IMG/VR virus record: IMGVR_UViG_3300036881_000024
Location: 1-61,419 of that record
DNA from: a virus
Taxonomy: Duplodnaviria > Caudoviricetes
DNA: 61,419 nt
Direction: 5' to 3' (one strand)
This document shows positions 3,186-50,762 of the stretch, in pieces. The stretch's first letter is position 1, and each line of letters starts with the position of its first letter. Both the position numbers and the translations under genes were made by a program. A model generated the notes under the pieces. It was not told where the DNA came from. It saw nothing but the letters and a program-made list of their open reading frames with translations, and searched no databases.

Positions 3186-4080
3186 TCGGGGCGAACCCCA
3201 ACTCCGCACTCGGCTCCAGACCACGCGGACAGCACGATCTAAACGGGCAGGGATTCGTCCTCTGGAAGCATTGGCTGAATTGCGGCTCCGGGGGCTCCGT
3301 CGTCCCGGCAATGCGGCTCAGCTTAGATTCCGCGAGATGCAATATTGCATTAAAGTTTTCCGGCACATCGACGTGGTGGATCAGCACCACTTCCGGCAGT
3401 AAGCCGTCTTCCACGAGTTGATCCAGCCATTGTTCCCTTGTGAACCGCGATTCGTGCTGAAACACCGGCTCCCACGCACCGTCAAAGCCTGTCCCATCCC
3501 GCTTGCGGAACCTTAACTGCTTTGATACCGGGTGAGTCCAGCCCTTTACGAGCGGGCCATGCCGCCGCCCATTCCGTTCCTGCCCCAAAACCACTACCAC
3601 GAGGTCCATCGGAACGCCATAAATTGCTGATTCCAGAGTCCTCCAGTCATGCTCGGCTTCGAGTTGGCGGTAAATGTTCCACGTGGAACACAGAACAACC
3701 CTCCGTAGATGGCTCTCAGAGGGGTCTAGGAAGGCTGATGGGCTCCAGACATGGTTTCCTACCTTAATCGGCTCCGAGCGCTTCCACGGGCCTCCAGTGC
3801 GCAGCAAATAGACCACAAACGAAGCTATCCCGGCCAGATGTTCGGCCTGCCCCAACAAATCCTCTTGGTTCGAGTCGATGCCCCGGCTGGTAGCAATTTC
3901 CATCAAAGCATCGGAGGCCGCATCGCCGGGGTCTTTCCCTGTGCTATCTGTCAGGCCAGCTTCGACGGCGCTGTACAGGGCTTCGCTGGGCGTGAGCGCG
4001 GGAACCTGCCACCGCTCGAAGTAGTAGGCGGCTCGGCGGCAGTGGTCGTCGTCAGCGAGGATGCGTGGCGTACCATTCAT
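3157..4080 (-). CDS. Cas4/PD-(D/E)XK-like protein, possibly catalytically degenerate
   Basis: N-terminal HCRRAAYY and C-terminal QCFQRTNPCPFRSCC fit the 1+3 Cys Fe-S arrangement; no clear D..ExK motif. Confidence 0.5.
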   Translation of the reverse strand: MNGTPRILADDDHCRRAAYYFERWQVPALTPSEALYSAVEAGLTDSTGKDPGDAASDALMEIATSRGIDSNQEDLLGQAEHLAGIASFVVYLLRTGGPWKRSEPIKVGNHVWSPSAFLDPSESHLRRVVLCSTWNIYRQLEAEHDWRTLESAIYGVPMDLVVVVLGQERNGRRHGPLVKGWTHPVSKQLRFRKRDGTGFDGAWEPVFQHESRFTREQWLDQLVEDGLLPEVVLIHHVDVPENFNAILHLAESKLSRIAGTTEPPEPQFSQCFQRTNPCPFRSCCPRGLEPSAELGFAPTTSSRASLA

Positions 4081-8671: not shown

Positions 8672-11600
8672 CCTTCGCCTCCACTCTGTCCGAACATCTG
8701 AATCGGCTCGTACTCGGCGTCAGACCCCCACGGTTTGCAATATGCAACGCATCCGTCCATATACACCTTGAGTGCCGGATCGGTCGATTGAAACTGCCAG
8801 TTCAGCCACTTCCATTTGTTCGGAGACGGCTTTACAAAATACTTGGTCGGGGTTGTCGTAGCGGGAAGGGTAATGGCCGATGGAGCATAGCTCCCGTTAT
8901 CTGCGTCCTGCACAATTCCAGTGAGCGTGACCGTATCTGCCGAAGTGTATTCGATCACCAACGCGCCGCAGTGTCCCCACCCTCTCAGGCCAATCGCAGG
9001 CGTTGCAACCGTTCCCGTCACCGCTTCCGTTCCCGAACTTGAGAACTGCCGGATGGTGAAGTCCGAACATCCCACCAGAACACCTTGCACGCTCTGGCCC
9101 TGATTCGAGGCATGAGTCGTGGCCTTGGGGGTCGTCAAGTCGAGCACCCACGCCATCGCGTTGATGTCGAAGACCAGCGTGTAGCGGTTGCCGTCCGTTC
9201 CGATGTAGTTGTAGTAAACATAAGGCCCCTGCCCCGAGAACTGCTGCAAGTCCGGTTTCGTATCGTCAGGCGGATAGATCGTCACGCCGTTTCGCGTAAT
9301 CGCTGTGGGGGTTGATCCCTCATGCGCGAACAGCGGATACAGCGTTTCATCTGTCACGGACTCCGAAGGCCCGCCCGACTGCGAGAACTCAATCCCATCA
9401 TCGACCCGGAACAATGTCTTGCCGCTGCCCTCGACATAGAGACACCGGGGAATGAACAGGCCGCGCTTAATCTCCGTGGTCCTGAAACTCCACGTCTGTC
9501 CCTGTGTGCCTTCAGCAGTTGCCGTCGCCATTGCCAGATTCGGCTGCATGACCCATGCTCTCTTGATCGAGAACACAATCGCGTAGCCGGAACTCATCGC
9601 CCCGTTCACCAGAGCTTCAGACGGGTCAGTCAAGTTCTGCTGATTTGTGTCGGGAGCGGAATCAAGGTTGTTCCCCTTGCACCAGTAAATCGTTCCCGGT
9701 CGCAACGGATCGCCGACTCCGCACTGAAAGGGAATGTTGTCAGTCGGGCCGAAGAGATAGGGCAATGGCTGCTGAGCCAGTTTCGGCTGTGCAATATCGT
9801 AAGGAACGCCCGCGCCGCCCGATGTTCCGATGGTGTCGGGAATGTTGGGAATCACAAGTTGAGTCGTGCTCAGCGGTCTTGCCACCAATGAATAGGCATT
9901 CTGCGTGGGAGAGCCAATCAGCATGAGCGTGCCGGGAAGCCAGCGAGTGTCGAACTTGTCGCCGGATTTCCATGTCACCACGCCGTCCACGATAGTCACC
10001 ACTCCCGACTTCGGAGTGTCGATCGACGGAAACGGCTCAAAGTCGTCTTCCGCCATAATCTGATTATTCGCGGCGGCAAGATCGCTCAGCGTGTCCTCGA
10101 TGGCCGTGTTGTAGACCTCGCCGTTGATCGTTCCGCCAAGCCCATCGTTCGGGCCTGTGGCGACGTAGGTCGGATTCGCCAGCGCATCATCCTGCCGGTA
10201 GCAGTCCCACTTGTTGGCTTGGGGATCGCTCGAATACGGCATCAGGATCGTGTTCGCCAGAACTGGGGTCTGCTGAATCGGGGAAGCCTGGCCGGGATTC
10301 GACTGCGCTCCCGTTTCCGTGGCGCGGTACTTGCCCCAATATCGCACTCCCGTCCTCACTCCCTGGGGCAGCGGAGGAATCACCGCTACAGCCGCCCCCG
10401 GAGTCGGAGCCATCTCGACAATCAGCGAACGCCCTGAGTGATACCAGTAGTCCCAATCGATCTCAAACGGATAAATCCCCGCCGCTGGAAACGTCACACT
10501 GACGGTGTTCGTGACGTGGGTGCCCGTGCCGTTCGGCGTGGAGACAAAGAGTAACGGAAGCCCGCTCGCCACGGTGATCGCCTGCCCCATCGCTCCATAA
10601 ACCGCTCCGCCCGTCGAAGTGGCTCCGCCCCCGATCCCGAACATGATCTGGTCCTTGTTCTGGATCTGGATGGCGTAGGTGCCGCCCTGGGGAATCCACA
10701 ACGAGCCGGTGATGCAAGCATTGAAGTCCTGATACCCGTCCGATTCGAGAGCCGGAGAAAAGAGGTTGATCGAGCCCACCGTTGCGCCGGCTGAGTCGAG
10801 AGTTGACCACAAGACAGGGACCGTTCCGTCTTCAGGGGTCGAGTCGAAGATCAGGGAATTGTTGGAAGCGGTAGCCTGAGCCGTCCCTAAAGTGCGGGCA
10901 ATGCCTGTTCCGCCGTCGTTCGGATTCTTCCAAATGTACTCGGCGACAGGCCCGGAGTGTGGAGAGTCGCCGAAGACCGCCGCATTCACCAAGCCAACAA
11001 GCGAGGCAACCTGAGTGATCGCAGAGGTCGATACGACCGCCTCGACAAGAAATGCCCCTGAGTTCGCGGAGAAGGTTCCGCCTTGAGAGTTAATGCCGAT
11101 TTGGAGTTGCGCCGCTCCCGCGGGAACGGTCAGGGTAGCCGATGCTCCTACGTTTCCTACTACTGGCGGAGCGCCACTGACCGTGGATTGCGCAATGATA
11201 TTTCCGTCCGCGTCGGTGAAGGCGAATACCACGATCTTCGGAGACGTGATGAAGTCGCCAGGATAGTTCGCTGCGTGAGTTCCCGCATCTCCCGGCGCAT
11301 GAGTCGCCCGGTTCACCGTGGCTGTTCCCGTCACCGTCAGAGTGACCGTAGAGCCCGGAACCGGCGTAGCGATAGCTGTCGGATACGGCGGCTGAATGTC
11401 GCTTCCTGAGTAGTTGTAGTTCGCGTTCACCCCAGAGATGTTTGTCCACGGCGGCGTGTTGGCAGGAAGACTCAACCATTGCGTCACGTTCACCGTGTTC
11501 ACGCCGACAATGGGAGGATACTGCGGTTCCTTGATGCCTGTTTTGCGCACCAGACCCGTGCTCGAAACCTTAATCATCCCCGAGCACGTAAATCCGCCTG

Positions 11601-43433: not shown

Positions 43434-44522
43434 CTACTTGGGTTTGTTCTGGTGAAAGCGCATTTGGGGATCGATCGCGTCTACGGCCGCTTCGTACAGC
43501 CGCTTCGGGATGCCGTCACGATGGCCGTGGTAGCCGAGCTTTGCCAGCCGCGCCTTGCACTCCCCTTCCGACAGGTCAGCCGAGCGCATGATCGCAAAAA
43601 ATCTCTTACTTTGGGGTCCGGTGATCGTCGGCTCCGAGGTCACCACTTCGCCTTGTACCGCCCCGCCTTGCCCTTGGCTTGGCTCAGGTGAGGCCGCTGG
43701 AGCTTGGGGGGAGGGTTGGGCACCCCTCTGGCTCCGAGGGCGTATATCGGGTTCTGGAGCGTTGTGCGATATTGCACTGCCCTCAGTCGTCCCATTCGGA
43801 GCAGCCCCACCCGAAGCCGAGGATGGTTGCGTAGTCGTCGTTCCAGTCGCGCTCTGAATCGGCTCCGTCCCCTCTTCCACGGTCCCCGTCATCTCCTCTG
43901 CCGGTGTCGGCTTGTACCCGGCGAGAACCACGACCCACTTGAAGAGGTTTGACAGCGCCTTCGCACAGGCCCGTGTCTGCGCCATCGACCGAAGCTGGAA
44001 TAGCGGAGTCGCAATCTCTCCGACCTTGACCTTTTTGCGCTTTGGCAAGTCTTTTCCCTTGGCTGCGTTGTATTCCCATATCTTTTTCCCCTGTCCATCC
44101 AGAACGTCTTCCCACTCGTACTGTGGCCTCATGCCCCAATTCTCTTCGTCATTGAGGCACATCGCTTCGCCCCGGCTCACTTCCCGCCCGTTGCAGTCCA
44201 GAGCAACCGCCGCGGCCTCGAACCCCTGCGCTTCGCCGAACTGGACGAACCGCGTGCTCTCGATCTTTGCCGTGACGCCGTAGAACTTAGCTACGGTCTG
44301 CCAGTCTCCGCTCTCAAGGTACGTCTCACCGTTGAAGACGATCTGCTTCTTCTTCGACTTCACCACCTTCATCAGCGCAGCGGCGGCTTTCTGTGCGTCG
44401 GCCAGAACTTCTTCCGGCTCCCGCGTTACCGCCAGCGCCTCGCCGGGGATGTACCGGACCATCTCGCTTCGGATTGGAGTTGCATCCATCATCGGTGCCT
44501 CTTGATCCACTTCGTTTGCCAT
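43434..44522 (-). CDS. Putative single-strand annealing/recombination protein
   Basis: SMAQTRACAKAL...LAGYKPTPAEEM; sits upstream of the exonuclease. Confidence 0.55.
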   Translation of the reverse strand: MANEVDQEAPMMDATPIRSEMVRYIPGEALAVTREPEEVLADAQKAAAALMKVVKSKKKQIVFNGETYLESGDWQTVAKFYGVTAKIESTRFVQFGEAQGFEAAAVALDCNGREVSRGEAMCLNDEENWGMRPQYEWEDVLDGQGKKIWEYNAAKGKDLPKRKKVKVGEIATPLFQLRSMAQTRACAKALSNLFKWVVVLAGYKPTPAEEMTGTVEEGTEPIQSATGTTTTQPSSASGGAAPNGTTEGSAISHNAPEPDIRPRSQRGAQPSPQAPAASPEPSQGQGGAVQGEVVTSEPTITGPQSKRFFAIMRSADLSEGECKARLAKLGYHGHRDGIPKRLYEAAVDAIDPQMRFHQNKPK

Positions 44523-44534
44523 GTTCCCTCTCTC

Positions 44535-44843
44535 TCAGAACTTTCCGAATTCGCGGTTGCCCCGTGTGATCCTTGCTTCCTTGCCTTCCACCAAATCGAA
44601 ATTCGCCAGCAACTCTCCGGCGAAGTCCTTGCAACGGTCACAGTAGCCGCCGTTGGTTTTCTGTTGGCGGTCGAATTGCTGCTCAACTTGATCGGCCGTG
44701 TATCCCGCCGTGAGCTTGAGCGCGAAGTCATGGTAGGAGTTTTCTTCGCACAGCCACTTCGCCAGCTTGTCTAGCGCATCTTTGTCCAACTGTGAGACTG
44801 TTTCCACTCCCGACGATGTGTGAGCCAGTACCGGGTTTAGCAT
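44535..44843 (-). CDS. Hypothetical protein
   Basis: First gene of the leftward early operon; RBS GAGGG. Confidence 0.55.
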   Translation of the reverse strand: MLNPVLAHTSSGVETVSQLDKDALDKLAKWLCEENSYHDFALKLTAGYTADQVEQQFDRQQKTNGGYCDRCKDFAGELLANFDLVEGKEARITRGNREFGKF

Positions 44844-44937
44844 CTGGTTTCCCTCTTCTTTACGGAGGCTAGCATAGCCGTTTCTTGTTGTCAACTTTTT
44901 TGTTGCAATTACTTTTGAAGTGTGCAACGATGTGTCC

Positions 44938-45162
44938 ATGAAGTTCTACACCGAAGGCGAATTGTTCAAAGTTCTGCGGGAGAAGTTTCAGCCTCGCGCA
45001 GGCCAGACGCAAACTCAGACGGCGGCGAAGCTCGGCTTTTCTGTCCAGTTCATCAATATGGTGCTTGATGGCCAGCGGCCAGTTACAAAGGATATGGCCT
45101 CTGCGCTTGGTTTCCGCGAGTGTCCGCGCAGGTTCACCCGCAAAGCGACCGCAAAGCCATGA
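44938..45162 (+). CDS. Cro/XRE-like HTH protein
   Basis: TQTQTAAKLGFSVQFINMVLDGQRPVT; sits at a divergent AT-rich promoter (44850-44937). Confidence 0.8.
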   Translation: MKFYTEGELFKVLREKFQPRAGQTQTQTAAKLGFSVQFINMVLDGQRPVTKDMASALGFRECPRRFTRKATAKP

Positions 45163-45274
45163 CGCTGCTGGACCTGTTCTGCATCATCCCGGCCATCGGC
45201 ATTGCGCTGATGCTGCTTTTGCCGGCACGAAAAGAGTGGTAACGCCCGGCGGCAAGCCGGAGAAGGGGATCGCA

Positions 45275-45904
45275 ATGACACTGACCACCACATTTAAGCG
45301 GCTGCGCAAGGCTCACGCCTGCTCATCGCGCTACAAGTTTCTGCGCAAAGCTCTACCGCGCAAAAAGTACGGCGACGACACGCCCATCAACCTGCTCATG
45401 ATCTTAAAGACGAACGGCCTCAACAATGCGCTGTGGGCGCTCCGCGCGGTAACGACGAGTCGTGCTGAGGCAAGGGCATGGGCTATTCACGCTCTTAGCA
45501 TCTGCGATCCAGAACTGAAAACGTGGGAAACAAACCGCATTGTAGATTCTTTGATTCGGTTGATGGCGGCTGATTTCGCCGAGGAAGTTTTGCCGATCTG
45601 GCAGAAATACGCTCCTGATGACAAGCGCCCGGAGTTGGCGATTAAAGCGGCGCGGGATTTCGCAAACGGACGTATCTCCCGCGAGGCATTGGCCGCCGCC
45701 GGGGACGCCGCCGGGGACGCCGCCTGGGCCGCCGCCGGGGCCGCCAGGGACGCCGCCTGGGCCGCCGCCGGGGACGCCGCCTGGGCCGCCGCCGGGGCCG
45801 CCAGGGACGCCGCCGGGGCCGCCGCCAGGGACGCCGCTCAACAAAAGCAGCGCGAGATTTTCACTCGTTACCTGCAACCCGCCAAGAGGAAGGTCCGCCC
45901 GTGA
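45275..45904 (+). CDS. Ala-repeat phage protein (AAGDAAWA repeats)
   Basis: DKRPELAIKAARDFANG followed by 12-nt-unit repeats at about 45692-45838. Confidence 0.75.
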   Translation: MTLTTTFKRLRKAHACSSRYKFLRKALPRKKYGDDTPINLLMILKTNGLNNALWALRAVTTSRAEARAWAIHALSICDPELKTWETNRIVDSLIRLMAADFAEEVLPIWQKYAPDDKRPELAIKAARDFANGRISREALAAAGDAAGDAAWAAAGAARDAAWAAAGDAAWAAAGAARDAAGAAARDAAQQKQREIFTRYLQPAKRKVRP

Positions 45905-46038
45905 CCGCGCTCGCCCTTATCCTCGCCGCCGCGTTCCTCGTGGGTGTGCCGTGGGTCATGTGGTACAGCCGGTGCTGGCACAGGCGCGCGGTGGAGCGCC
46001 CCGACATGCGCGATCACAGGCAGAAGGGACGGTGAGCC

Positions 46039-46287
46039 ATGACCGATGAAGAGTTAAAGAATAAGACAGCCCTCATCCTGAATTTGGCGATGCTCGTTAG
46101 GCGGCTGGTACGGAAAATGCACCAACTTGCCCCGACCGATCCCATCATTCAACAAGCAATGGACTTTCTCTCCAAGAATGGATTGCAGGGAAGTGTATTG
46201 CGCGCCGAAGCAAGCGAACACGACCGCGACTGGTATCAGGAGAACGATCCTCAATCGCTGGTCGATTCGATCAACAACAGCAAATAG
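46039..46287 (+). CDS. Hypothetical protein
   Basis: Lower-GC ORF between repeat copies. Confidence 0.6.
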   Translation: MTDEELKNKTALILNLAMLVRRLVRKMHQLAPTDPIIQQAMDFLSKNGLQGSVLRAEASEHDRDWYQENDPQSLVDSINNSK

Positions 46288-46334
46288 AACGCGGCCGGAC
46301 ACGCGCGATCACAGAATGAAAGGAAGGTAAATCA

Positions 46335-47168
46335 GTGAAGAACGTGGAGTGTAGAACGCAGCTGGAATTAGATACCGCCTTGAAAGACCCAAATGTGTCG
46401 CCGATCCTGGTCGGGAATGGGACATTCACGGCCTGCGACTCCTCGCAGGTGAGGGCCTACGGCTCCTCGCAGGTGACGGCCTACGACTCCTCGCAGGTGA
46501 GGGCCTACGGCTCCTCGCAGGTGACGGCCTACGGCTCCTCGCAGGTGACGGCCTACGACTCCTCGCAGGTGAGGGCCTACGGCTCCTCGCAGGTGACGGC
46601 CTACGACTCCTCGCAGGTGAGGGCCTACGACTCCTCGCAGGTGACGGCCTACGGCTCCTCGCAGGTGACGGCCTACGACTCCTCGCAGGTGAGGGCCTAC
46701 GGCTCCTCGCAGGTGACGGCCTCAAAACATGTAGCGGTCACGAAGCATGGGAAAGGCACAAGGGTGTCAGGTGGGGTTCAGATCGACTATCTCCCGCCGC
46801 AGACTCTTGCCGAATGGCTGGAAGAATACGGCGTGCAAGTGAAAGATGGGATCGCCATTGTTTACAAAGCGGTGGACAGCGACTTCAAGAGCCCACATGG
46901 CGGCGATTATTCCCCAGGAACTCTGACGGAATGTGATCACTGGAATACGACCGTTGAGTGTGGCGGCGGGCTGCATGCATGCGGGACGCCTCGTCACGCG
47001 CTTAGATTCTATGTAGACGCGAAGCGGTTCGTTGCGCTTCCAGTAGCAGTCAATTCAATCGCACATTGGCCCAACGGAGATTACCCAACAAAGGTCAAAG
47101 TGCCGCGAGTCGTCGCGCCCGGATGCTACGAAGTGGATATAAACGGAAAACCGATAGTCGCATCGTAA
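46335..47168 (+). CDS. Octapeptide-repeat (beta-solenoid) phage protein
   Basis: 12 x A(Y/C)(D/G)SSQV(T/R), then YKAVD...ECGGGLHAC...KVKV. Confidence 0.8.
   Translation: MKNVECRTQLELDTALKDPNVSPILVGNGTFTACDSSQVRAYGSSQVTAYDSSQVRAYGSSQVTAYGSSQVTAYDSSQVRAYGSSQVTAYDSSQVRAYDSSQVTAYGSSQVTAYDSSQVRAYGSSQVTASKHVAVTKHGKGTRVSGGVQIDYLPPQTLAEWLEEYGVQVKDGIAIVYKAVDSDFKSPHGGDYSPGTLTECDHWNTTVECGGGLHACGTPRHALRFYVDAKRFVALPVAVNSIAHWPNGDYPTKVKVPRVVAPGCYEVDINGKPIVAS
46430..46722 (+). repeat. 24-bp coding tandem repeat, 12 copies
   Basis: GGCCTACGRCTCCTCGCAGGTGAS units with no spacers. Confidence 0.95.
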
Positions 47169-47411
47169 GGAGCGGCCTGATTGCGCGATCACAGAATGAA
47201 AGGACGGTGGCCCGTTGAGTGAGATAGATTACTCTTGCCGTATTTGTGGGAAAGAATGCGATTCCGCTCCCAGTCTTCCTGAGCGCGTAATTTGCGAAGA
47301 TTGTTGCGAGGATCACGACTATTGTTATGAGCGGGAACTACGCGGGCACTTCTGCAAGAACTGCGGGAAGTCCGCTCCGTCAGATTGGTTCTCTTAGGAA
47401 GGACGTCCGCA

Positions 47412-47786
47412 ATGACCAACGAGGAGTACGTGCGTGAGCGCGTCTTGAGTTTAAGCGCTAGGCCCGGTGAAGATGGTGGATACAACGTTCTGCTTCATGA
47501 CGTTGTAAATCCGTCTGGAGCGAAATATGCGGCAAATGGGGTTGCAGCTCCATCTGCTTTTTTGGCTTGGTTCAGATATGCTTCTAAATCCGAAGCCTGG
47601 CTCGCCGCCCGCCAGTTCACGGAAGCCCGCGAGAAGGAAATCGAAAAGCGCGTGGAAGATATTGGCTGGCTGAAGATCATGGGCCTTGATCGCGTTGCTT
47701 GGGATCAGCATGGCCAAGCAATTCTTACCCGCGAGCAGGCCGCGCTGGATGAGCTTCGCAGGGGGATGAAAGGACGCCCGCAATGA
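47412..47786 (+). CDS. Hypothetical protein
   Basis: Flanked by AAGGACGYCCGCAATGACC direct repeats. Confidence 0.65.
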   Translation: MTNEEYVRERVLSLSARPGEDGGYNVLLHDVVNPSGAKYAANGVAAPSAFLAWFRYASKSEAWLAARQFTEAREKEIEKRVEDIGWLKIMGLDRVAWDQHGQAILTREQAALDELRRGMKGRPQ

Positions 47787-47959
47787 CCGATGCGCACGAC
47801 CCCCGCGGGAGCGATCCGCCGGACTCGAAGGCGCTCTCGGATGATCCGCCCCAGGTCAGCGCGGGCTTGCGGCGGCTGGTCTGGTACGCGATAGCGATTG
47901 AGCTTGCAGCCGCGCTCGCGGCCTGGGGCGCGTGGTGGATTTGGAGGATATGGAGATGA
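47783..47959 (+). CDS. Small membrane protein (58 aa)
   Basis: Hand-translated; C-terminal TM segment LVWYAIAIELAAALAAWGAWWIW; ATGA overlaps at both ends. Confidence 0.6.
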   Translation: MTDAHDPRGSDPPDSKALSDDPPQVSAGLRRLVWYAIAIELAAALAAWGAWWIWRIWR

Positions 47960-48189
47960 GCGTCATTGGCGATAAGTTTTCGCTGGAATTGGCGGTGTTC
48001 GAGCGATACCGCCGGGAGTGGTATCGTTTCCACCCCGGCGAATTTGTCGTTATCCAAGGTGAAGAAATCGCGGACGGGTTCTTTAAGACCTATGCCGAAG
48101 CCTTGAAGGCAGGTCTGCAGAGGTTTGGTGCCGAGCGCGAGTTCCTTGTTAAGCAGATTTGGGTCACGGAGCCGGTGTACTTGGTATGA
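47956..48189 (+). CDS. DUF5678-like small protein
   Basis: HPGEFVVIQGEEI..FF.TYAEALKAG..RFG...FLVKQI. Confidence 0.55.
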   Translation: MSVIGDKFSLELAVFERYRREWYRFHPGEFVVIQGEEIADGFFKTYAEALKAGLQRFGAEREFLVKQIWVTEPVYLV

Positions 48190-48203
48190 GAGAGGATTTG
48201 GAG

Positions 48204-48383
48204 ATGAGCGAGACAACGTTACTGCCGTGCCCGTTCTGTGAAGGCGAGGCGCGCGTTGAGCCTGACGCGCTGTACAACGTGCTCCGCGAAAAGCCGCGCA
48301 AGCGCATGGACCCGGCGACAAAGATCAGCCTTTGGATCACAGGCGTAATCGCGGTGATCCTCATGTACTGGATTTTCAGCTAA
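48204..48383 (+). CDS. Lar-like zinc-finger start fused to a TM tail
   Basis: LLPCPFCEGEA; second Cys pair absent. Confidence 0.45.
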   Translation: MSETTLLPCPFCEGEARVEPDALYNVLREKPRKRMDPATKISLWITGVIAVILMYWIFS

Positions 48384-48519
48384 TTACCCGTACAGGAGAG
48401 GGGGTGAGCAAATTGACCACATTCAGGCGAAAAGGGTATTTATCGGCAATTGCGTTAGCTTGGACGATTCTCGTCCCGGTTCTCCGCACACAGGATACTA
48501 TTCCTGCCCGCCAGATTGA

Positions 48520-48573
48520 CGGCGCTGCATAGGGCCCCGTATTGCAGGCCGCACCACACACGGGGCGCAAATA
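48520..48573 (+). ncRNA. Candidate pseudoknot RNA motif, copy 1
   Basis: Stem CGGC(G)CTGCA/TGCAGGCCG; loop GCCCCGT is complementary to downstream ACGGGGC. Confidence 0.55.
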
Positions 48574-48679
48574 AAGCGCAGCAGCGCAGGAGAGGGGGTG
48601 ATACTTCGATGAGCCGATGCAATTGTACCGAGCCTTGGACTGGATTCCAGAGACAGCCGTGTCCCGTGCATGGTTCGTA

Positions 48680-48733
48680 GCCGCGCCTCGTAGGTCCCGT
48701 ATCGAGGCGCGGCCCACACACGGGGCGCAAATA
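48680..48733 (+). ncRNA. Candidate pseudoknot RNA motif, copy 2
   Basis: Stem GCCGCGCCTCG/CGAGGCGCGGC; loop GTCCCGT pairs with ACGGGGC; identical 3' 20-mer. Confidence 0.55.
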
Positions 48734-48767
48734 GCCCGCAATCCACCGGGGCGGCCGCGAGGATTAC

Positions 48768-49262
48768 ATGACGCACGACGATTTGCGGATGAAGGCCATT
48801 TCGATTCTCAGGCGCAGCAACGCCGTTGCTCGAAAAGGGGGATGGAAACATCAACTCGGCTTTTCCTGCGGAGTGATTCTGTCTGAGATTTCATCTGCCG
48901 CCAACGATAACCCGGACGCGATTGGCTGGAGCTACGGGCGCTCCGTAATGATCGAATGCAAGATGAGCCGAGCAGACTTCTTTGCCGACTCCAAAAAGCC
49001 TCAACGTTTGACGGGCACCGGAGCCGGTGAGCGCCGGTACTTTATGACCCCAAAGGGGCTGCTGAAACCCGCTGAATTACCTGAGAACTGGGGACTGATA
49101 GAGTGGGACGGGAATGAGACCATCGAAGCAGTTGGAGCACCGAAAAGACAACTTGATTTACTGGGGCATGTCGCCGAAAAAAAGATGCTGCTTTCAACCG
49201 TCCGGCGGATCAGGATGCGGGAATTTCTGATTATTCAAGACGAATGCGTGCCAGCGCACTGA
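48768..49262 (+). CDS. PD-(D/E)XK nuclease (MmcB-like)
   Basis: PDAIGW...MIECKMSRADFFAD..K...ELPENWGLI. Confidence 0.7.
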   Translation: MTHDDLRMKAISILRRSNAVARKGGWKHQLGFSCGVILSEISSAANDNPDAIGWSYGRSVMIECKMSRADFFADSKKPQRLTGTGAGERRYFMTPKGLLKPAELPENWGLIEWDGNETIEAVGAPKRQLDLLGHVAEKKMLLSTVRRIRMREFLIIQDECVPAH

Positions 49263-49288
49263 GGCGGCGCGCGAGAGGAGGCGGAAGG

Positions 49289-49765
49289 GTGAATTGGCAA
49301 GCGCAATCCGAACGCTGGCAGACTCCGCCGCAGATCTTTGACCCGCTCATGCGCGAGTTTAGCTTTGATTTGGATGCCGCTGCAGATCCGCAAACGGCCC
49401 GCGTGCCGCGGTTTCTTTCGAATGCCCTCGATAGTGAAGAGTGGCCGGGAGAGCGGATTTGGATGAACCCGCCTTATGGTAGAAAGCTAGAATCCTTCGT
49501 ACGTAGAGCTGCGTGGGAGCATCAACGGTATCCCAACAAGACCATTGTCGCTTTAATTCCGTTCCGCTGCCGCGCTTCGTGGTGGCATGAGTGCGTAATC
49601 GGCAAGGCGCAAGAAGTCCGCTGCGTGAGAAAGCGCATCCGATTTGTTCGCCTTGACGGGGCTCCAGGACGGTTCACTGGCTCCTGCGACTCCTGCTTAG
49701 TGATCTGGCAGGGAAAGGCGAAGAGGACTGTGCTGGTTTCTTGGAATCCCGCCAAGGTCTACTAG
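49289..49765 (+). CDS. Phage N6-adenine DNA methyltransferase (Dam family)
   Basis: WQTPPQIF...FDLDAAA...WMNPPYG. Confidence 0.9.
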   Translation: MNWQAQSERWQTPPQIFDPLMREFSFDLDAAADPQTARVPRFLSNALDSEEWPGERIWMNPPYGRKLESFVRRAAWEHQRYPNKTIVALIPFRCRASWWHECVIGKAQEVRCVRKRIRFVRLDGAPGRFTGSCDSCLVIWQGKAKRTVLVSWNPAKVY

Positions 49766-49914
49766 CGCCCCTGCTCCCTTTTCCACTGCTGCCACGCGGC
49801 CTCGCTAGGCGCCGGAGGGCGCGGAGGTGGCTTCGGCGCAGGCTTGGGAATGTGTATCTTTTTGAGCACAATCCAGTTTAGCACGGGTGGTAGGATATGG
49901 GGAGAGGTGACCTC

Positions 49915-50124
49915 ATGCTTGGACTGCTCGTTACGATTCTGGTTATGTGCATTATTTTTGGGCTGATCTGGTGGATCATCAGCGTGATCCCACTCCCCCC
50001 GCCGTTCGCTAGGATCGCCCAGGTGGTATGCGTTGTCCTATTTTGCCTGTGGCTTATCTATTTGATTCTGCCGCTTGCAGGCGGCGGATTCGGGCATCCG
50101 CTCCCAGGTCCATACCCGCGCTAA
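49915..50124 (+). CDS. Small two-TM membrane protein (moron)
   Basis: LIWWIISVIPLPPPF hairpin between two TM helices; RBS GAGGTG. Confidence 0.7.
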   Translation: MLGLLVTILVMCIIFGLIWWIISVIPLPPPFARIAQVVCVVLFCLWLIYLILPLAGGGFGHPLPGPYPR

Positions 50125-50216
50125 CGCACCAAAGGCCGCTCGCGCGGCCCTCGGTGTCCTACTGCGGCAATAGACGGATTACCCCCGACTATCGCGCCTA
50201 GCCTGCGCGCGATCCC

Positions 50217-50762
50217 TTATCCCGCGATCCTCAATTGCGGCAAGCCTATGCCAATCGCGGTGTCGTTGTACTGCTGCTTGAACGATCCGGCGGGCGTCTG
50301 CAGAAAGTGCGAAGCCTTGAGCGCCACACGGCCCTTATGCGGGTTGTTCTGAATCGTGGCGCGCTCCCTGGTGAACTTCATGCTCTGCGGCGCGAAGTAG
50401 TTAATCACCGCCTCGATGCCGGATATAATCAGGTCAATCAGCGGAGAGTAGAGCGCGGTGAACGGGATCACAGCGACCACTGCCTCAATCGTGTTCAGCG
50501 CGTCGATCACGATGGCTGCGGCCCCGCCTGTCTTCCACGATGCCTCGGCCTGTTCGAGCGCGGACAGCGCATTTGAGAGTTCCACCGCCCACGGCTGCGA
50601 ACCGCCAATATATTTCAGGAGCCCCTGCAAAGCGTCGATGATAACGCTCAAGGTGCCGCTCACCGAGAACGAGCAGCCTTCCATGAGCATTGTGGATGGT
50701 GTCAAGACCGCGACTGCGGCGCCTGTGCCCGAGAGTCTGAGAAATGTTCTGCGATCAATCAT
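50217..50762 (-). CDS. Tat-signal putative lipoprotein
   Basis: MIDRRTFLRL twin-arginine motif, then a lipobox-like MEG-C. Confidence 0.65.
   Translation of the reverse strand: MIDRRTFLRLSGTGAAVAVLTPSTMLMEGCSFSVSGTLSVIIDALQGLLKYIGGSQPWAVELSNALSALEQAEASWKTGGAAAIVIDALNTIEAVVAVIPFTALYSPLIDLIISGIEAVINYFAPQSMKFTRERATIQNNPHKGRVALKASHFLQTPAGSFKQQYNDTAIGIGLPQLRIAG

Follow-up and report, generated by a model that had tools for sequence, protein, structure and literature searches.

A duplicated hairpin-and-tail element behind micro-ORFs in a phage accessory operon: a candidate lineage-restricted RNA motif

The DNA analysed here, hereafter the window, is a whole stretch of 61,419 bases that constitutes a complete virus record (linear, rated 100% complete). 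Within it lie two copies of a 54-nt element, E1 and E2, each made up of a hairpin and a 20-nt tail and each standing at the 3' end of a micro-ORF. Judged from sequence comparison, the element is a real, lineage-restricted and new RNA motif. The reading of its function that we favour, at a probability of roughly 40%, is that E1 and E2 are cis-acting structured RNA between genes, marking the 3' ends of the micro-ORFs for mRNA stability or processing, with the repeats also driving the gain and loss of units. Each such unit, or cassette, consists of a strong ribosome-binding site, a micro-ORF and an element, and the coordinates and sequences that the original prediction gave for these parts were all correct. 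The parts are as follows:

48393-48407, + strand: 15-mer CAGGAGAGGGGGTGA, copy 1, an extended Shine-Dalgarno region, separated by 5 nt from the TTG of ORF1
48413-48532, + strand: micro-ORF1, TTG start, 39 aa; the E1 loop opens with its TAG stop (48530-32)
48520-48573, + strand: element E1, 54 nt, hairpin plus 20-mer tail
48520-48551, + strand: E1 hairpin, arms 48520-29 and 48543-51, 9 pairs, bulged G at 48524, 13-nt loop at 48530-42
48554-48573, + strand: E1 tail, the 20-mer CCACACACGGGGCGCAAATA, an exact match to the E2 tail
48587-48601, + strand: 15-mer CAGGAGAGGGGGTGA, copy 2, a Shine-Dalgarno region, separated by 7 nt from the ATG of ORF2
48609-48680, + strand: micro-ORF2, ATG start, 23 aa, cysteine-rich; its TAG stop abuts the E2 stem
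48680-48733, + strand: element E2, 54 nt, hairpin plus 20-mer tail
48680-48713, + strand: E2 hairpin, 11 perfect pairs, 48680-90 with 48703-13, 12-nt loop at 48691-702
48714-48733, + strand: E2 tail, the 20-mer CCACACACGGGGCGCAAATA, an exact match to the E1 tail

The 15-mer that leads each cassette has two exact copies in the window, at 48393 and 48587, and the 20-mer that closes it occurs exactly twice, in the window and in the whole virus record alike (+ strand, at 48554 and 48714). If as many as three mismatches are allowed, 0.01 matches to the 20-mer would be expected, and none of 100 shuffles held two or more. The 20-mer repeats, which had been described from the start as identical, far exceed chance. 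The two copies of the element are spaced by 160 nt, which is not a multiple of 3; necessarily, therefore, no one frame on either strand reads both copies alike, and a protein repeat is ruled out; the earlier description of a duplicated element is borne out, and the element does not code at the level of the repeat. The two units have ORF parts that bear no relation to each other, aligning with a score of 9 against 6.3 +/- 6.6 in 300 shuffles, and what is kept between the units outside these unalignable parts amounts to 15, 12-13 and 20 nt, corresponding to the ribosome-binding site, the loop and the tail. Micro-ORF1, the product of which begins with a basic N-terminus and continues as a hydrophobic helix, is an orphan in that a 42-aa version of it is without a homologue in a large protein collection, and its sole tblastn match over the loci collected for this study is the strain contig L014 described below. 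Moreover, six alternative ORFs across the region match no phage protein family (best E 0.046).

The case for a selected structure comes from the stems. When the two elements (loops TAGGGCCCCGTAT in E1 and TAGGTCCCGTAT in E2) are aligned by structure, from the loop outwards, nine stem pairs are common to both, of which five are identical, four are altered on both sides and none is altered on one side only; that is, the differing stem positions are compensated in 4 of 4 cases, and a G-C pair of E2 corresponds to the bulged G in E1. Under a null of four random substitutions per E2 arm, all nine pairs survive in 157 of 200,000 trials. Since survival of all the pairs is so rare under this null, the comparison indicates that the hairpin has been kept as a hairpin by selection, and the loop (12-13 nt) and the 20-nt tail of E1 and E2 have evidently been held constant in sequence. 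Such a combination, of a compensated stem with a fixed loop and tail, is typical of a folded nucleic acid in which loop and tail make specific contacts. The original prediction had it that the stems differ in sequence and that both pair; the pairing is indeed kept, but the stems are not wholly different, as five of the nine pairs are the same.

Taken as isolated hairpins, E1 and E2 have calculated energies of -14.2 and -24.2 kcal/mol, respectively. The fold of E2 over 66 nt has z = -3.61, with 0 of 200 shuffles equally stable; that of E1 is equivocal (z -1.31), the unrestricted best fold taking a long-range helix over the hairpin. The 7 terminator-like sites found include neither element: a rho-independent terminator has a U run after its G+C-rich hairpin, and here the stems give way to C/A-rich sequence. 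Nor do the elements resemble the pseudoknots that stimulate -1 frameshifting or read-through, which have a slippery heptamer or a stop codon at a fixed short distance 5' of the first stem: there is no slippery heptamer 5' of either stem, and the UAG falls inside the loop of E1 but immediately precedes the stem of E2.

It had also been proposed that loop and tail pair with each other to form a pseudoknot. In E1 the loop sequence GCCCCGT (48534-40) is complementary to ACGGGGC in the tail (48560-66) over 7 bp, with a duplex energy of -17.8 kcal/mol; in E2 the loop sequence GTCCCGT (48694-700) is matched to ACGGGGC (48720-26) over 7 bp, including one G.U, at -13.0 kcal/mol. From 20,000 composition-keeping shuffles of loop and tail, the P value of such a pairing run is 0.008 for E1 with Watson-Crick pairs only, 0.024 for E1 with G.U allowed and 0.030 for E2, which places the loop-tail pairing only mildly beyond chance, suggestive and not compelling. 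Moreover, as sequence conservation extends to loop and tail alike, their pairing in both copies is not independent evidence. The sole difference within the pairing is a C in E1 against a U in E2, opposite G, a difference that keeps a G.U pair on + strand RNA only; in this regard it hints, mildly, at RNA and at the + strand. It would also be the only comparative support for a pseudoknot, the copies available for comparison being these two plus one identical copy in the strain variant. The loops of the candidate pseudoknot (3-4, 2 and 6-8 nt) look sterically workable, going by general pseudoknot geometry, and an H-type pseudoknot is a possible and reasonable hypothesis. Of the proposal, the 7-bp complementarity in both copies stands, but the pseudoknot itself is not established at P values of 0.008-0.03.

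Two further stretches near the elements have sequences that bear on pairing. Within ORF2, GTCCCGTG (48661-48668) could form 8 bp with the E2 tail and so compete for pairing. Beyond E2, a degenerate third tail-like stretch, CCACCGGGGCGG (48743-48754, + strand), lies just 5' of the ribosome-binding site of the nuclease-like gene that follows, and could act as an alternative, competing partner of the E2 loop.

The phage has a G+C content of ~58% and the majority of its genes are on the minus strand. The elements are housed in a + strand island of small genes at ~45065-50124, which forms a long accessory operon; the genes around the elements are all on the + strand and separated by short gaps. Those nearest to the elements are as follows:

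48204-48383, + strand: 59-aa protein; CPFC motif, hydrophobic helix at the C-terminus
48768-49262, + strand: 164-aa nuclease-like gene, a member of PHROG 631 that matches PHROG 5429, 'DNA repair protein', too
49244-49765, + strand: phage-type Dam N6-adenine methyltransferase (PF05869, E 7.5e-24)

The 59-aa protein is weakly Lar-like (PHROG E 8e-4, NCBIfam E 0.13), and an Imm5-like protein and a DUF7666 protein are encoded farther upstream. The 164-aa protein has no match in Pfam, NCBIfam or PADLOC; its D..E-C-K residues are invariant, and the profile of its family matches 3dnx_A (E 5.5e-05), an uncharacterised structural-genomics protein, with which it presumably shares a restriction-endonuclease-like fold. 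Relatives of the 164-aa protein in bacterial genomes are mostly in Acidobacteriota (Terriglobia) assemblies, and the sequencing runs that contain the stretch, 17 DNA runs among them, are peat and permafrost metagenomes; the host of the phage is therefore likely to be found in Acidobacteriota. The identical 164-aa protein occurs on 9 contigs, the longest of which, at 158,600 bases, is well above the 61-kb record, such that the phage or the gene may also be integrated into, or assembled with, host DNA.

Junction sequences common to unrelated genes are seemingly a habit of this operon. Two 19-mers at 47944-47962 and 48192-48210, 95% identical and ending in ATGAGCG, form near-identical translation-start regions ahead of genes for small proteins of 77 aa and 59 aa that are unrelated to each other. 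The sequence gcgcgatcacag is found at 46005-46038 and again at 46301-46334, ~20 nt 5' of the starts at 46039 and 46335, and the genes that start at 46039 and 47783 share the opening ATGACCGATG. Where the + strand island converges on the gene that follows on the minus strand, at 50134-50149, a G+C-rich hairpin with a stem of 6 bp and a loop of 4 nt is not followed by a T run; the terminators of this phage may be free of U tracts.

The number of units varies between strains, a point that the original prediction did not raise, any more than the unrelatedness of the two micro-ORFs or the reading frame that each element shares with its ORF. The 1,728-base metagenome contig L014, which is the sole true match outside the record, is 100% identical to 48412-48573 and 99.2% identical (1,534/1,546) to 48693-50237, with the E1 hairpin and tail passing straight into the sequence 3' of E2. 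What it does not contain is the following:

48574-48733, equally 48554-48713: 160-bp unit absent from L014, with the junction inside the 20-mer repeat

The one-unit form still has one complete element. L014 differs from the window elsewhere and is therefore a separate strain and not a copy of this record, and collapse by the assembler is unlikely, since the 20-base repeat is shorter than the usual assembly word. In an independent DNA run, X2, a 1,144-base contig is identical to 48073-49216 and has both units present. Taken together, these one-unit and two-unit contigs mean that both forms exist in nature and, from their alignment with the window, a unit has evidently been gained or lost between strains at the 20-mer. 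Deletion between the 20-base direct repeats is the simplest cause of the one-unit form; alternatively, a cassette may have been acquired through 20-mer homology. At the far end of L014, the last 71 bases (1658-1728) repeat in reverse complement the stretch that immediately precedes them (window 50190-50260), beside the convergent gene junction, which is either a fold-back assembly artefact or an inversion.

This polymorphism bears on an alternative that deserves weighing although we consider it unlikely, namely that the repeats are a DNA-level recombination linker like the PeSL (promoter-early stem-loop) cassettes of T4-type phages. The hairpin and junction sequences would then serve mainly as short homologies for the shuffling, gain and loss of orphan micro-genes, and the hairpin would be at most a transcription attenuator. 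Identical short sequences do flank two unrelated ORFs, the strain variant is set apart by one unit exactly, its crossover falling in the repeat, and the operon has further short junction repeats before unrelated genes (the 19-mers at 47944 and 48192). Precedent is available too, in that PMC2839356 and PMC4122927 describe indels between sister phages with crossovers in or beside a PeSL stem-loop. A promoter, however, is half of the definition of a PeSL, and no sigma-70-like promoter was found in 44500-50700, where 2.2 would be expected; the tail, read as a promoter, likewise gives no sigma-70 match. Moreover, a linker leaves unexplained the presence of a fixed loop alongside a compensated stem, and the deletion of sequence between 20-bp direct repeats requires no dedicated function. 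Nor is the junction sequence present on any other contig in the metagenome and virus collections, so that no pool of exchange partners is visible.

The distribution of the element was sought more widely. None of the 4227 families of Rfam 15 reaches its gathering threshold anywhere over the whole window, in agreement with the original view that the RNA is not a recognised one; the three Rfam matches at E <=10 over 48200-48900, the best of which is on the minus strand with E 0.095 and 21.5 bits against a gathering threshold of 81, are noise. For the riboswitch, ribozyme and antiterminator roles named in the original prediction, this absence of Rfam matches is the one result that bears on the matter. 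A covariance model built from the two copies and run with filters off finds only E1 and E2 in the window (E 4.9e-19 and 3.3e-17), the next match, at E 0.084, being the palindromic E2 stem on the opposite strand. Exact patterns of the loop plus tail, or of an 18-mer, return nothing from the virus collection, in which a 16-mer is found in 8 stretches and the loop plus CCACAC in 3, none with the hairpin or the remaining element. The loop-plus-tail pattern returns 11 stretches from the metagenome collection, 10 of them chance matches and the other the strain variant L014, and blastn against a GenBank phage collection gives no match. As these collections omit records very near the window, close kin may be under-counted.

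Loci around relatives of the nuclease-like gene (4 + 80 + 80 fetched) are similarly devoid of the element. It is absent, by eye, upstream of the six closest relatives of that gene (63-65% identical); a script for the motif plus hairpin finds no element in 2.62 Mb from 174 other loci; and the covariance model R1, run over the loci with L014 set apart, gives best E values of 0.13-0.98. One of these matches, in L092 (E 0.39), was rejected, being explained by a different conserved palindrome. This palindrome, AACATT-N10-AATGTT, overlaps a TACAAT box ~60-90 nt before position 4001 of each of the loci L037, L052, L067, L091, L092, L093 and L096, which hold chromosomal relatives of the nuclease-like gene in Bryobacterales-type assemblies; from its sequence it looks like an operator, perhaps a damage-inducible one.

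Whole records that hold nuclease-like relatives contain the element in 0 of 5 cases, as do phage records chosen by their terminase (76-83% identical; 0 of 5). In the best terminase relative, G411, the genes that flank the island are conserved and the content of the accessory island is different, and its intergenic hairpin region is not significantly similar to that of the window (41 against 33 +/- 5.3). The syntenic island of G411 has its own exact 17-mer ribosome-binding repeat (L218:11345-11361 and 11541-11557, 196 nt apart), after which there is no hairpin-tail element, and, at L218:10200-10395, a CCGCC-rich run of 12- and 21-nt periodic repeats that is probably coding low-complexity sequence. 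Among Acidobacteriota genomes, 1 of 5 has a match at 3 mismatches, and 401 sampled genomes give 1 match to the 20-mer at <=2 mismatches, compared with 2 for a control pattern. The overall emerging picture is that, as far as these searches of sequence collections reach, the element appears to be confined to one phage lineage. Apart from the strain variant L014, no homologue came to light in any of these searches, which goes a long way towards the outcome that the original prediction had named as counting against it.

A restricted distribution of this kind is what makes a neutral leftover worth considering, that is to say a tandem duplication of long ago, or a pair of terminator-like hairpins unrelated to each other, now serving no function and owing their identities to chance or to recent gene conversion. 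Occurrence in one phage lineage only, relatives without the element and the evident dispensability of one unit in L014 all favour this reading, which we nevertheless regard as distinctly improbable. The divergence between the units is uneven, with ORF parts that are unalignable and yet 15, 12-13 and 20 nt that are kept; the changes in the stem are compensated in all four cases; and the one-unit variant retains a complete element.

What bears on expression comes from three RNA-library runs that contain a small share of the stretch. In one of these, from peat, a 181-base contig at depth 9 is identical to 48596-48776; it starts 23 bases past the E1 tail and spans ORF2, E2 and 43 further bases. 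Over the 1.6 kb compared, the same run has no other phage contig, and the flanks are uncovered. The contig fits a locally abundant RNA containing E2, but is a hint only, since contigs give neither ends nor strand and DNA can contaminate RNA libraries; as it extends 43 nt beyond E2, it demonstrates no 3' end at the element. In the other two runs, X18 and X20, the pieces are confined to 48118-48257 and 49174-49400 or else have foreign ends, so that neither run is informative on the element.

If E1 and E2 are, as we favour, cis-acting RNA elements between genes, then their mode of action can be sketched, in steps that are inferred; what is shown is that selection acts on the hairpin, that loop and tail stay fixed, that the units are laid out as cassettes and that strains differ in unit number. 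On the mRNA, the hairpin, which is G+C-rich and which the 7-bp loop-tail helix would probably lock as an H-type pseudoknot, would provide a stable 3' boundary to the message of the micro-ORF, and the AAAUA at the end of the tail, which is the only A+U-rich stretch nearby, would be a likely site of entry or cleavage by an endonuclease. The element would in this way uncouple the amounts of micro-ORF message from those of the downstream nuclease-like and Dam messages, and the micro-ORFs, presumably highly translated, could be expressed at a level of their own. A ribosome ending on either micro-ORF would cover the 5' arm of the stem, such that translation and folding would be coupled. At the level of DNA, the identical 20-mers would act as direct repeats, through which a whole unit could be deleted or acquired by slippage or homologous recombination. 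Against this favoured reading is the fact that related phages (terminase 74-88% identical), and the phages with the closest nuclease-like genes (63-65% identical), do without the element.

The same layout could be read as an undescribed cassette system, although we think this highly improbable. The modules of ribosome-binding site, micro-ORF and pseudoknot would themselves be exchangeable, the pseudoknot RNA would be the product (for example a decoy for an RNA-guided or RNA-cutting defence of the host, or an exonuclease-blocking cap) and the 20-mer would be the site of module exchange.

A coding explanation, in which read-through of the UAG adds a conserved C-terminal peptide and the hairpin stimulates the read-through, is prompted by a genuine peculiarity of the reading frames. 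In both units the sequence from the CCC of the loop onward is in frame with the upstream micro-ORF, a stop (TAA or TAG) is completed by the first base past the 20-mer, and the two extensions would share the same six final residues. Such agreement of frame would be expected by chance at a rate of some 1 in 12 to 1 in 36, however, and there are zero synonymous differences in the 20-mer, whereas four consecutive stem codons change their amino acid while staying complementary. The geometry of the UAG is unlike in the two units, in the loop in one and before the stem in the other. Moreover, a scan of the window reveals no tRNA genes in the phage, suppressor tRNAs included, and the phage gives no sign of stop-codon reassignment. 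We consider read-through to be very unlikely.

Least probable of all is an anti-defence RNA, either a decoy or antitoxin mimic, as pseudo-ToxI of phage TE is for ToxN (a mimic of type III pseudoknots being among the roles in the original prediction), or a protein-binding RNA controlling the nuclease-like gene: although the accessory module includes a weakly Lar-like protein, a nuclease-like protein and Dam, although processed type III antitoxins would be resembled by an H-type pseudoknot that has single-stranded tails and ends in A-rich sequence (AAAU), ToxN of Pectobacterium cutting AA/AU (PMC5086642), and although copy number varies between strains, much as the repeat number does in pseudo-ToxI escape mutants (PMC5086642), the 54-nt copies are not tandem but have a translated ORF between them, no ToxN, CptN or AbiQ-type gene and no PADLOC family is nearby, the 20-mer at <=2 mismatches is in 1 of 401 Acidobacteriota genomes against 2 control matches, and the closest nuclease-like genes are without such an upstream element, so that the antitoxin mimic in particular fails on tandem repeats and on an adjacent ToxN-type toxin.

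If E1 and E2 are working RNAs, they would represent a new structured motif from phages of Acidobacteriota-rich peat, in which almost no regulation has been characterised, and a compact natural example of a hairpin or pseudoknot that is tied to micro-ORF cassettes varying between strains. If, on the other hand, they are only stabiliser hairpins or a recombination scar, they are ordinary. The strain polymorphism, together with the many peat runs that bear the phage, makes this question testable with existing data.

Several known systems bear comparison with the elements. Integron cassettes are promoter-less small ORFs followed by an imperfect hairpin, the attC site, the number of cassettes varying between relatives, and the units described here follow the same cassette logic. 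The attC site has a two-box layout, however, whereas E1 and E2 have a simple hairpin with a conserved loop, and no integrase or recombinase family was found among the ORFs scanned, which were part of those of the phage. Intercistronic stabiliser hairpins and processing sites are well known from polycistronic mRNAs, as in REP hairpins and the RNase sites of phage early operons. With these, E1 and E2 share a G+C-rich hairpin right behind a stop codon in an operon, followed by an A+U-rich single strand; what differs is that the loop and tail here are conserved and complementary, suggesting a pseudoknot or a specific partner.

The RNAs of type III toxin-antitoxin systems (ToxI, CptI and antiQ) are head-to-tail tandem repeats of 34-45 nt, whereas the copies here are of 54 nt at a spacing of 160 nt, an interval that takes in a ribosome-binding site and ORF2; no ToxN-, CptN- or TenpN-type endoribonuclease adjoins them, the downstream protein being 3dnx-like. 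With these RNAs and with the pseudo-ToxI of phage TE (PMC5086642, PMC3475682), the elements have in common that the 3' end is A-rich, that copy number varies and that they are found in a phage; if the loop-tail pairing forms, an H-type pseudoknot flanked by single-stranded tails would be a further likeness. The PeSL cassettes of T4-type phages differ from the units described here in that the latter have no sigma-70-like promoter, are present in two copies only with no other carriers in the collections searched, and have a conserved loop and 3' tail that are mutually complementary. The likeness to PeSLs (PMC2839356, PMC4122927) lies in short conserved intergenic stem-loop motifs that flank small orphan genes in a variable region and in close relatives that differ by whole cassettes, with the crossover in or beside the motif, as is the case here for L014.
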